From: a virus
Lineage: Duplodnaviria; Heunggongvirae; Uroviricota; Caudoviricetes
Reading direction: 5' to 3' (one strand)
IMG/VR virus record: IMGVR_UViG_2529293038_000024
DNA: 13,566 nucleotides
Shown here: positions 1 through 3,000 of the stretch, in pieces
Layout of the letters: the number at the start of each line of letters is the position of its first letter
Position numbering within the stretch: the stretch's first letter is position 1
Program-made: the position numbers

Positions 1-3000
1 CACGAACAGCTGGGTGAGGGAACGGTCATCCACATTGTGCCGCGACTGGCCGGGGCCGGAAAGGGTGGACTGCAGATTGTGTTGGGGGCGGCAGCCATCG
101 TGGGCTCTTTCTTCACTGCCGGGGCATCAATGGCGTTATGGGGTTCAGCCCTGGCAGCCGGTGGTTTTTCTGCCACCACGATGCTGTTTTCACTTGGAGC
201 CAGCATGATTCTGGGCGGTGTGGCCCAGATGCTGGCCCCGAAGGCAAAAACACCGGATTACCGCGCAACGGATAACGGCAGACAGAACACGTACTTTTCC
301 TCGCTGGATAACATGATTGCCCAGGGGAACCCGATGCCGGTGCCTTACGGGGAAATGCTGGTTGGCTCCCGCCGTATATCCCAGGACATCAGCACCCGTG
401 ATGAAGGCGGGGGCGGAAAGGTCGTGGTTATCGGGCGACAGGGATAAAACATAAAAAAATCCCGCAGTGATCGCGGAGCTGCGGGGACAGACAAATGAAG
501 ATCAATGTGAAGGAGTTGTTTTTGTTACTCGGGCAAAAAAACACTAACGCAGCGAAATTATAAGCGCCACAGTCAGTGTGTGAAAATGTGAAGATATTCA
601 GAAATTTTATTCCGTCATGACGCAGGCACCCGGTGAGGTGCCTGTTGTTTTTGTGAGTGAACAATTATCACGGTAAGAGGTGATGTAATGGGCAAAGGTG
701 GCGGCAAGGCGCACACACCGCGTGAGGCGAAAGACAATCTCAAATCCACGCAGATGATGAGCGTGATTGATGCGATTGGTGAGGGACCGATAGAAGGCCC
801 GGTGAAAGGCCTGCAGAGTATTCTGGTGAACAAAACCCCGCTGACGGACACGGACGGTAATCCCGTGATACACGGTGTGACGGCGGTCTGGCGCGCCGGG
901 GAGCAGGAGCAGACACCACCGGAAGGCTTTGAGTCCTCCGGAGCTGAAACCGGACTGGGCGTGGAAGTGACGAAGGCAAAGCCGGTAACGCGCACCATTA
1001 CATCCGCGAACATTGACCGCCTGCGGGTCACCTTCGGGGTGCAGTCACTGTTGGAGACCACCTCAAAGGGCGACCGTAATCCCTCTTCTGTCCGACTGCT
1101 GATTCAGTTGCAGCGTAACGGTAACTGGGTGACGGAAAAGGATGTCACCATTAACGGCAAGACCACCTCACAGTACCTGGCGTCGGTGATTCTGGAGAAT
1201 CTGCCTGAGCGGCCCTTTAACATCCGGATGGTCCGGGAGACAGCGGACAGCACCTCGGACCAGCTGCAGAATAAGACGCTCTGGTCGTCATACACCGAAA
1301 TCATCGATGTGAAACAGTGCTACCCGAACACGGCGATTGTGGGGCTGCAGGTGGATGCGGAGCAGTTTGGCGGTCAGCAGATGACGGTGAACTACCATAT
1401 CCGAGGTCGCATCATCCAGGTGCCGTCAAACTATGACCCGGAAAAACGCACGTACAGCGGCATCTGGGACGGCAGCCTGAAACCGGCATACAGCAACAAC
1501 CCGGCCTGGTGCCTGTGGGACATGCTGACTCACCCGCGCTACGGCATGGGAAAACGTCTGGGGGCGGCAGACGTGGACAAATGGGCGCTGTATGCCATCG
1601 GGCAGTACTGCGACCAGACGGTCCCGGATGGTTTCGGGGGCACAGAGCCGCGGATGACCTTTAATGCGTACCTGTCACAACAGCGTAAGGCATGGGATGT
1701 GCTCAGTGATTTCTGCTCGGCGATGCGCTGTATGCCGGTATGGAACGGCCAGACGCTGACGTTCGTTCAGGACCGCCCGTCGGATGTGGTGTGGCCGTAC
1801 ACCAACTGCGATGTGGTGGTGGATGATAACGGCGTGGGGTTTCGCTACAGCTTCAGCGCCCTGAAGGACCGCCACACGGCGGTGGAGGTGAATTACACCG
1901 ACCCGCAGAACGGCTGGCAGACCTCCACGGAACTGGTGGAAGACCCGGAAGCCATACTGCGCTACGGGCGCAACCTGCTGAAGATGGATGCGTTCGGTTG
2001 CACCAGTCGCGGTCAGGCCCACCGTGCCGGGCTGTGGGTGATAAAGACCGGACTGCTGGAAACGCAGACGGTGGATTTCACGCTCGGGTCACAGGGGCTG
2101 CGTCACACACCCGGTGACATTATTGAAATCTGTGATAACGACTATGCCGGGACCATGACCGGCGGACGTATCCTGTCCATCGATGCCGCCAGCCGCACCC
2201 TGACACTGGACCGTGAGGTGACCCTGCCGGAGACAGGTGCCGCCACGGTGAACCTGATTAACGGCAGCGGTAAGCCGGTGAGCGTGGCCATCACCGAACA
2301 CCCCGCGCCGGACCGGATACAGGTCAGCACCCTGCCTGATGGTGTGGAGACATACGGGGTGTGGGGACTCTCCCTGCCGTCACTGCGTCGTCGCCTGTTC
2401 CGCTGTGTCTCCGTCCGGGAAAACACGGACGGCACCTTTGCCATCACGGCGGTGCAGCACGTACCGGAAAAAGAAGCCATTGTGGATAACGGGGCCAGCT
2501 TTGAGCCGCAGTCAGGTTCCCTGAACAGCGTCATCCCACCGGCAGTGCAGCACCTGACGGTGGAGGTGAGCGCAGCTGACGGCCAGTATCTGGCGCAGGC
2601 GAAATGGGACACGCCGCGGGTGGTGAAGGGTGTGCGCTTCAGTCTGCGCCTGACCAGTGGTAAGGGAACGGATGCCAGACTGGTGACCACCGCCATCACC
2701 GCAGACACGGAGCACCGTTTCAGCGGCCTGCCGCTCGGGGAATACACCCTGACGGTGCGGGCGATAAACAGTTATGGCCAGCAGGGTGAACCTGCCACCA
2801 CCACCTTCCGGATTGCCGCACCGGCAGCACCGTCGCGGATTGAGCTGACGCCGGGCTATTTTCAGATAACCGCCACGCCGCATCTTGCCGTTTATGACCC
2901 GACGGTACAGTTTGAGTTCTGGTTCTCGGAAAAGCGGATTGCGGATATCAGGCAGGTTGAAACCGCAGCCCGCTATCTTGGCTCGGCGCTGTACTGGATA

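Follow-up and report, generated by a model that had tools for sequence, protein, structure and literature searches.

PasB (E2348CN_0006) is a small RNA (sRNA) of enteropathogenic Escherichia coli (EPEC) strain E2348/69 whose gene lies on the minus strand of the chromosome (NC_011601.1, 1466343..1466261; 83 nt), within prophage PP6 and between the genes E2348C_1436 (tail assembly) and E2348C_1437 (J) (Pearl Mizrahi et al., 2021, Sci Adv, PMC8550237, Table S6). Here, we report that the same gene is present in a 13,566-nucleotide stretch of DNA from a virus of the Caudoviricetes (IMG/VR record IMGVR_UViG_2529293038_000024), referred to in its full length as the window, and that PasB appears to be one member of a wider family of prophage-encoded sRNAs. 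As a discovery, the gene is a rediscovery, since PasB was found by ligating and sequencing interacting RNAs (RIL-seq) in 2021 and was surveyed in 2026 (Zhu, Shabalina & Storz, bioRxiv 2026, 10.64898/2026.05.13.724894).

In Northern blots, PasB forms a discrete band of the predicted size, and its stability depends on Hfq (PMC8550237, Fig. 3A); the log2 fold changes of pasB in a Δhfq strain are −6.8 and −2.4 in the two conditions studied (PMC8550237). The RNA ends in a U-tract of seven residues and takes part in 37 RIL-seq interactions, being ligated on Hfq to dozens of mRNAs and nearly always as the second partner (RNA2 in 99-100% of its chimeras; PMC8550237). The RNA-seq BaseMean values for pasB are 482-1082, compared with 5 and 15 for the flanking tail genes, and its level is higher in overnight static lysogeny broth than in Dulbecco's modified Eagle's medium (PMC8550237). 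The 2026 preprint located pasB on 1,107 chromosomes, within phage structural operons, proposed from conservation only that its seed lies directly upstream of the terminator, and calls the function of the sRNA not elucidated (10.64898/2026.05.13.724894).

The pasB gene in the gap between tail genes I and J

An initial annotation, made by reading the raw sequence, had proposed that tail genes I and J are separated in the window by a moron-like insert of 240 bp with a candidate small RNA. The open reading frame (ORF) calls agree with the extent of this spacer (448-687): the upstream ORF, the 3' part of tail assembly gene I, stops at position 447, and the ORF for J, which comprises 1157 aa and the complete Pfam set of J tip-attachment domains, begins at position 688. 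The corresponding lambda genes had been described as adjacent; they are indeed close, but strictly speaking they are separated by a gap of 60 nt. Since the lambda gap is only of this size, about 180 bp of the 240-bp gap studied here are extra.

Positions 440-700 of the window are 100% identical to positions 1466248-1466508 of the E2348/69 chromosome (NC_011601.1). The published Northern probe (AATCCCGCAGTGATCGCGGAGCT) corresponds to the plus strand of the window at 457-479 and is thus complementary to the RNA, and in the annotation of the E2348/69 locus PasB is antisense to both E2348C_1436 and E2348C_1437. Because the spacer is 100% identical, and because coordinates, strand, flanking genes and probe all agree, the insert in the I-J gap is, as judged from its sequence, pasB, an already known Hfq-dependent sRNA gene of EPEC. 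The published Northern and RNA-seq data for the identical sequence show the 83-nt PasB; its Hfq dependence and its expression in lysogens while the flanking tail genes are silent bear out the notion of a moron-like insert with a small RNA as its product. When used as a megablast query, the spacer was recovered in 1,106 of 5,426 complete E. coli genomes. The case of pasB illustrates that a real sRNA gene can be picked out from a reading of raw sequence.

The signals on which the initial annotation relied, namely a near-consensus minus-strand promoter, a GC-rich hairpin followed by seven U residues and a CA-rich tract (AACAAAAACAAC), are all present at the positions given in Table 1. The scan yielded two promoter-like sites, as compared with 0.4 ± 0.6 in shuffled sequences, and three terminator-like sites, as compared with 0.5 ± 0.7. 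The terminator arms are CCCGCAG (485-479) and CUGCGGG (467-461), and the U7 tail occupies positions 459-453; Hfq-binding sRNAs are expected to carry at least six U residues after a rho-independent terminator, and PasB carries seven behind a GC-rich 7-bp stem. In the minimum free energy (MFE) fold, the terminator alone is stable, while the region 515-486 is unpaired. In keeping with the claim that the transcript contains no ORF, reading of the sequence revealed no AUG in the sRNA, and its GUG and UUG frames meet no stop codon before the terminator; the relatives described below differ from each other by insertions and deletions of 1-7 nt that are not multiples of three. A small protein product was rejected on these grounds. 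An own promoter and terminator, a shorter junction in lambda, and published expression in lysogens whose tail genes are silent together give the insert the attributes of a moron.

The 5' end of the RNA is placed differently by the promoter and by the published data. The −10 element ends at 557, which predicts transcription to start at G550 and to yield an RNA of 98 nt; the published 5' end, which derives from RNA-seq coverage and the size of the Northern signal (PMC8550237), corresponds to position 535 of the window, and the furthest-upstream start among the RIL-seq reads of PasB (1466344) corresponds to position 536. Hence, the length of about 98 nt initially suggested for an RNA starting near 550 holds for the transcript predicted from the promoter, but not for the 83-nt RNA with its published end. 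Either a 15-nt leader would be removed from the primary transcript or a weak second promoter would be used. A candidate for the latter is a TAnnnT motif at 546-541 (TAGTGT here), which would yield the published 5' end; the family conserves its T546 and A545 and the subsequent T residues at 90-100%, but its −35 region is poor (TGGCGC). G550 and the UUA at 547-545 of the predicted leader are likewise 90-100% conserved in 58 variants. In the 98-nt form, the U-run at 541-535 is predicted to pair with the A-rich tract in a 5' hairpin. This candidate structure was dropped, because it is weak (−1 to −6.5 kcal/mol) and, in 28 variants, did not outperform shuffled sequences.

A family of I-J gap sRNAs

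We scanned IMG/VR with a 22-mer taken from upstream of the −35 element and, separately, with a 14-mer from the terminator. When a fixed spacing after the terminator was demanded, the pattern found only five loci; the plain 14-mer drew many unrelated viral contigs, which were filtered out. The resulting family comprises 134 related loci, in which 58 different spacers and 39 different RNA regions occur. A sensitive BLAST search detected related spacers at 5,561 places in 1,825 of the 5,426 E. coli genomes, about a third of them, with as many as 11 in a single genome.

Conserved throughout the family are the A/T block upstream of the promoter, the −10 element with its four invariant positions (A561, T560, A558 and T557), G550, a GCGUUA leader followed by a U-run, the motifs CUCC and AUCUU, and the terminator with its U-tail, in which neither the 3' arm nor the U-run varies. 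Across the 58 unique spacers, the invariance of the −10 positions, of G550 and of the 3' terminator arm is far above chance, and the expectation that the region is conserved in related prophages was thereby borne out. Variation is strongest in the 8-16 nt directly 5' of the terminator and also affects the A-rich tract and the 5' loop. There are at least eight versions of the 8-16-nt segment, the putative seed, among them CAUUUGUCUGUC, UGUCUGUC, CGUAACUCU, CAUUUUCUGUU and CAUCGUUCUCU.

Three sRNAs of enterohaemorrhagic E. coli (EHEC) O157:H7 Sakai that had been recovered by cDNA analysis after cross-linking to Hfq (Hfq-CRAC), EcOnc22, EcOnc23 and EcOnc24, fall in I-J gaps on the strand opposite to the tail genes (prophages Sp15, Sp14 and Sp11, respectively). 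EcOnc22 was seen at about 85 nt in Northern blots and is destabilised in a Δhfq strain (Tree et al., Mol Cell 2014, Table S2). The coordinates of the 2014 table are displaced by +137 to +146 relative to NC_002695.2, a shift that we calibrated on AgvB1 and on which the link between the EcOnc RNAs and PasB rests; after its application, the three Hfq peaks sit on a PasB-like RNA body that is identical in Sp11, Sp14 and Sp15. These RNAs have in common with PasB the 240-bp I-J gap, the antisense orientation, the promoter layout, a GCNUUA leader with its U-run, the A-rich tract, CUCC, UUAAUCUUCAU and the terminator, and they too are bound by Hfq. Over the whole PasB spacer, those of the O157/Stx prophages are about 77-80% identical. 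The two sRNA types differ in the segment 5' of the terminator (CAUCGUUCUCU versus CAUUUGUCUGUC) and in the 5' loop. Table S6 lists no homologue from EHEC for PasB (PMC8550237), and the EcOnc names are not mentioned in the 2026 preprint (10.64898/2026.05.13.724894). As neither of the two Pas papers mentions it, the connection seems not to have been made before; PasB would thus belong to a wider family of I-J gap sRNAs that includes EcOnc22, EcOnc23 and EcOnc24, a grouping that appears to be new.

Several observations concern the fate of individual family members and the upstream block. In one variant (v37), an insertion sequence (IS) element with the left end TGAACCGCCCCGGGAATCCTGGAGAC is positioned between the −35 and −10 elements of the sRNA promoter, and the sRNA gene is presumably inactivated. 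In two other relatives, the 3' half of the sRNA and the terminator are joined to unrelated upstream sequence that lacks the conserved promoter; such truncated and re-joined copies suggest decay of, or recombination within, the module. Across divergent phages, the A/T-rich block at 585-612 has changed less than the sRNA body, and its AATAAAA is 100% conserved even though it lies outside the 22-mer with which the relatives were retrieved; the block is a possible UP element or regulator site.

Putative seed, predicted mRNA targets and rival roles of PasB

To locate the pairing region of PasB, we selected 14 of its approximately 37 RIL-seq partners by top chimera counts or odds ratios and scored their read ranges, extended by 60 nt on each side, against every 12-nt window of PasB. 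These short windows, together with shuffled and real controls, were used because duplex prediction with whole RNAs over-extends through large loops; the real controls, taken from the same genome, were 48 translation-start fragments and 58 internal coding fragments. Relative to dinucleotide-shuffled targets, an excess of complementarity was found only at 518-491 (z down to −4.8), and relative to the real controls the enrichment was confined to 522-489 (CUCCUUCACAUUGAUCUUCAUUUGU), with peaks against the start-region controls at UCCUUCACAUUG (p = 0.0008) and AUCUUCAUUUGU (p = 0.0002). An Hfq-dependent trans-acting sRNA is expected to possess an accessible seed; the PasB segment 515-486 is unpaired in the predicted fold and its complementarity is enriched in the 14 targets.

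The putative seed, CUCCUUCACAUUGAUCUUCAUUUGUCUGUC, contains the anti-Shine-Dalgarno sequence CUCCUUC and the anti-start sequence UCUUCAU. Contiguous duplexes with PasB are predicted for the Shine-Dalgarno (SD) sequence and GUG start codon of napF (GGAAGGUCAAUGUGAAGA), the SD sequence of yijD (AAUGUGAAGGA, in the 3' end of fabR), the AUG of tolC (CAAAUGAAGA), codons 2-4 of caiF (UGUGAAGGA), the SD sequence of the PP9 gene that follows E2348C_2648 (AGAAGGAG) and codons 11-14 of rpoS (AAAUGAAGAU). We consider it probable that PasB is a canonical Hfq pairing RNA with a C/U-rich, anti-SD-like seed, which is the best-supported mechanism, and that its most likely action is to occlude ribosome-binding sites on mRNAs of the host and of prophages. 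With TolC serving in efflux and the cell envelope and RpoS in the general stress response, a defined seed (515-486) and a set of predicted sites make the function of PasB testable.

The course of events that we propose is as follows. pasB would be a self-contained promoter-RNA-terminator moron placed antisense between I and J of a PP6-like lambdoid prophage. In the lysogen, its near-consensus sigma70 promoter would direct the synthesis of a short non-coding RNA (83 nt as published, 98 nt when counted from G550) that ends in the hairpin and U7. The U7 tail would contact the proximal face and the (ARN)4 tract the distal face of Hfq, leaving the unstructured C/U-rich segment to serve as the seed. 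The partners of the seed would be SD and start regions, including those of tolC, napF, yijD, caiF and the PP9 gene, as well as an early stretch of the rpoS coding sequence, and such pairing is expected to repress translation. The 3' part of the seed, UUGUCUGUC, would pair with an abundant plus-strand RNA encoded beside pasA in PP2 and pasC in PP5.

Several points weigh against this proposal. RIL-seq reports proximity on Hfq and not a regulatory outcome, and the original authors found no common motif among the PasB targets (PMC8550237). Our seed test covers 14 of about 37 partners with overlapping 12-nt windows and carries no formal correction for multiple testing (the best p value multiplied by 28 windows is about 0.006), and an anti-SD-like seed will match something in many mRNAs. 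The yhhX, hflX, map and ffh mRNAs are bound within their coding regions, where a block of initiation does not apply. The 5' end of the RNA is uncertain, with the strong promoter pointing to 550 and the published data to 535. Furthermore, the dominant partner of PasB is a non-coding prophage RNA, so that repression of mRNAs may not be its main role.

The sequence of the CA-rich tract varies among the relatives (AACAAAAACAAC, AUAAGAAUAAU, AAUAAAAACAAAAC, UGAAAAAUAAC), but a run of A-R-N triplets is kept, and the RIL-seq targets show no excess complementarity to it (p = 0.82). The ARN motif is tied to binding at the distal face of Hfq, also in AgvB (Tree et al., 2014). As the sequence drifts while the A-R-N pattern persists, the tract is probably a distal-face Hfq site rather than a GcvB decoy. 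The plus strand of the window contains the 11-mer GTTGTTTTTGT twice (515-525 and 644-654; 0.01 expected by chance). One copy complements the A-rich tract of PasB and the other forms the U-tail of a plus-strand hairpin in the I-J gap; the tract could therefore pair with the late mRNA at 644-654, although this applies to the present seed type only and may be coincidence.

The initial annotation had suggested that the RNA, with its CA-rich tract, could be an AgvB-like sponge that mimics GcvB targets. Such an anti-sRNA would titrate the R1 seed of GcvB and de-repress amino-acid and peptide transporters, and PasB would then be a second, independent phage-encoded GcvB sponge. The tract is indeed rich in C and A and unpaired in the fold of the 83-nt form, and anti-sRNAs are known from EHEC prophages, yet we regard this reading as very improbable, since it failed on Rfam, locus, size, motif, RIL-seq and duplex energy alike. 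The Rfam search that had been recommended matched no family in the whole window at the gathering threshold. Even at E ≤ 10, the AgvB model (RF02702; gathering threshold 56 bits) had no match in the region 380-760, although it recovers the true AgvB1 of strain Sakai at 96.5 bits; the only matches at this cut-off were sub-threshold chance matches driven by the terminator, among them Ref84, Hrs1 and a Trp leader. AgvB (EcOnc01) is an RNA of 51-60 nt whose gene belongs to a convergent pair of sRNA genes in the moron site 3' of PR', and it carries the GcvB consensus CACAACA in a 5' variable region (Tree et al., 2014); the locus and size of PasB are different, and CACAACA is absent from its sequence. 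No GcvB-PasB chimeras occur in the RIL-seq sRNA-sRNA blocks of either condition, and the complete PasB block of the non-activating condition has no gcvB row; the known sponge pair GcvB-SroC accounts for about 950-1,220 chimeras in the sRNA-sRNA blocks of the two conditions. In silico, the CA-rich tract pairs with GcvB R1 at −7.0 to −7.8 kcal/mol, and the value of −7.0 kcal/mol is at chance level, as it is equalled by 39% of random genomic 12-mers (mean −6.5 kcal/mol, 1st percentile −12.6 kcal/mol), compared with −15.8 kcal/mol for the best 12-mer of AgvB. The duplex of the whole PasB body with GcvB is no better than 68% of dinucleotide shuffles, and the sequence of the tract is not conserved in the relatives. 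An AgvB-like role of PasB is not supported, and the anti-GcvB idea can be dropped. PasB (489-481, minus strand) and GcvB share the 9-mer UGUCUGUCC, which, if it were meaningful, would make PasB resemble part of GcvB rather than sponge it; with about 0.07 such matches expected by chance, we set it aside as coincidence.

Two further roles have to be weighed against repression of mRNAs by the seed. The top RIL-seq partner of PasB is pasA.E2348C_0689.IGR (774 chimeras, 3 libraries), a plus-strand RNA from beside pasA in PP2 (NC_011601.1 743482-743611), between the genes for a SASA esterase and a holin; it has no match in Rfam. This RNA could sponge PasB, or PasB could control it and thereby expression of the late and lysis region, a cross-talk between prophages at which its position upstream of the PP2 lysis genes hints. 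Of the approximately 1820 chimeras that PasB forms in the non-activating condition, 774 involve this RNA; they occur in all three libraries, and the reciprocal orientation is seen as well. A further 54 come from its homologue beside pasC in PP5, where the gene that follows encodes an ISEc13 transposase and not a holin. The partner RNA carries GACAGACAG, which forms a 9-bp core with UUGUCUGUC at the 3' end of the PasB seed, and the overall duplex beats 99.3% of shuffles; an 8-9-nt match between RNAs of such sizes is nevertheless not rare (roughly 0.2 as an estimate), and chimera counts track abundance as well as affinity. The partner RNA ends in a terminator-like hairpin of its own, some 45 nt short of the PP2 holin gene. 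Since the pairing site precedes the holin start by about 195 nt, with this hairpin in between, it is not obvious that lysis genes would be affected. The RNA may be a PasB sponge, a PasB target or simply abundant, and we judge prophage cross-talk as the principal role to be unlikely, while noting that it is compatible with mRNA repression and that both may hold. The PP2 transcript would be about 190 nt long (743482 to approximately 743671, plus strand) and shares about 18 nt with the 5' end of pasA. A purely local role, in which the strong antisense promoter or its RNA damps or times the expression of J, lom and the tail-fibre genes by interference or antisense pairing and trans targets are incidental, has in its favour that in all 134 loci and in three Sakai prophages the sRNA gene occupies this junction and opposes the tail operon, that conservation is higher in the promoter and the block upstream of it than in the RNA body, and that the RNA is perfectly complementary to the late transcript at the I-J junction. 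However, the seed varies while the scaffold stays, a pattern expected of a trans-acting pairing RNA and not of pure interference. PasB is also Hfq-dependent with many specific trans chimeras, it is expressed in lysogens while the late operon is silent, and chimeras with the mRNA of I or J are absent from the RIL-seq lists. We therefore hold a role in cis to be improbable.

With the repression of mRNAs by a seed as the preferred reading for PasB itself, a broader picture can tentatively be drawn, to which we give somewhat less than an even chance. PasB and EcOnc22, EcOnc23 and EcOnc24 would represent one large family of moron sRNAs in which promoter, Hfq scaffold and terminator are fixed and a seed of 8-16 nt is exchanged, so that each prophage could deliver a differently addressed repressor. 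PasB would be addressed to the start regions of host genes such as tolC, napF, yijD and caiF, to rpoS early in its coding sequence and to RNAs from the late regions of other prophages in the same host. Through the link to the EcOnc RNAs and the dozens of variants, a single EPEC sRNA would become a widespread family with modular seeds in pathogenic E. coli.

The remainder of the window and comparison with known systems

The I-J gap contains a further element, a terminator-like plus-strand hairpin with a U-rich tail (fold z-score −3.4; Table 1), which is on the strand of the tail genes and thus of the Q-antiterminated late operon. Among the relatives, one pair of its stem changes from C-G to U-A via U·G, and some family members lack the hairpin; an analogous hairpin with a T-run is present in the 60-nt I-J gap of lambda. 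Because lambda has this counterpart and some family members are without the hairpin, it is older than the sRNA gene, an ancestral feature of the I-J junction and not part of the insert, and the inserted unit spans about 448-613.

Apart from the IS66-family element listed in Table 1, the window is collinear with PP6 of E2348/69 at 96-99.95% identity. Between the IS66 element and nleA lies an ORF of 180 aa (9491-10033, plus strand) without a Pfam match. An ORF of 440 aa (10515-11837, minus strand), also without a Pfam match, is collinear (99.95%) with the type III effector gene nleA of E2348/69, and downstream of it follows an integrase fragment (12493-13233, minus strand) that is a pseudogene in RefSeq.

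Table 1. Features of the pasB locus and of the IS66-family element in the window
Feature	Position	Strand	Basis or remarks
PasB sRNA as published, 83 nt	453-535	minus	Table S6 coordinates, offset 1465808
Intrinsic terminator and putative Hfq proximal-face module	453-485	minus	7-bp stem, 11-nt loop, U7
Putative C/U-rich single-stranded seed region, CUCCUUCACAUUGAUCUUCAUUUGUCUGUC	486-515	minus	Unpaired in MFE fold; complementarity of RIL-seq targets
(ARN)4 tract, AAC AAA AAC AAC (AACAAAAACAAC)	515-526	minus	A-rich/CA-rich
Predicted 5' leader of the primary transcript, GCGUUAGUGUUUUUU	536-550	minus	Promoter position; conserved G550 and UUA
Sigma70-type promoter	557-584	minus	TTCACA (584-579), 16-bp spacer, TATAAT (562-557); 11 of 12 consensus positions
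Conserved A/T-rich block upstream of −35, AATAAAATTTCTGAATATCTTCACAT	585-612	minus	Near-invariant in 7 divergent phages
Hairpin with U-rich tail	622-655 (hairpin 622-645)	plus	Directly upstream of the J ribosome-binding site
IS66-family element, 2,694 bp	6667-9360		Inserted relative to PP6
IS66 orfA, helix-turn-helix	6719-7396		
IS66 TnpB_IS66	7396-7743		
IS66 DDE transposase	7763-9334		

The closest described counterpart of the locus is that of E2348/69 itself. The sRNA is without any difference, with the same strand, neighbours and probe; the promoter in the window predicts a 98-nt primary transcript as compared with the 83 nt published, and the otherwise collinear backbone (98.5-99.95%) carries the extra IS66-family element 6 kb downstream. 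A looser relation, by analogy only, exists to Class II Hfq sRNAs such as ChiX and MgrR, which reportedly combine an (ARN)n tract and a U-rich terminator tail with a strong dependence on Hfq. PasB resembles them in its ARN tract, U-rich tail, strong Hfq dependence and long single-stranded seed.

With AgvB and AsxR (RF02702 and RF02703; Tree et al., 2014), PasB has in common that it is prophage-encoded, bound by Hfq and expressed in lysogens, and that it carries ARN motifs; the logic of the families, a conserved scaffold combined with a variable pairing region, is the same as well. The loci and sizes differ (3' of PR' and 51-60 nt for AgvB and AsxR versus the I-J gap and 83-98 nt for PasB), and neither the sequences nor the covariance models reveal any similarity to PasB. 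The variable region is 5'-terminal in AgvB and AsxR, whereas that of the PasB family adjoins the terminator, and the strong pairing of AgvB with GcvB R1 contrasts with the energy of about −7 kcal/mol and the lack of GcvB chimeras found for PasB. The gene as a whole is built in the manner of the lambdoid morons (Juhala et al., J Mol Biol 2000), as it consists of extra DNA with its own promoter and terminator, is expressed from the repressed prophage and is placed between genes that are close to each other in lambda, but it differs from them in its cargo, which is a non-coding RNA transcribed from the opposite strand instead of a protein gene.

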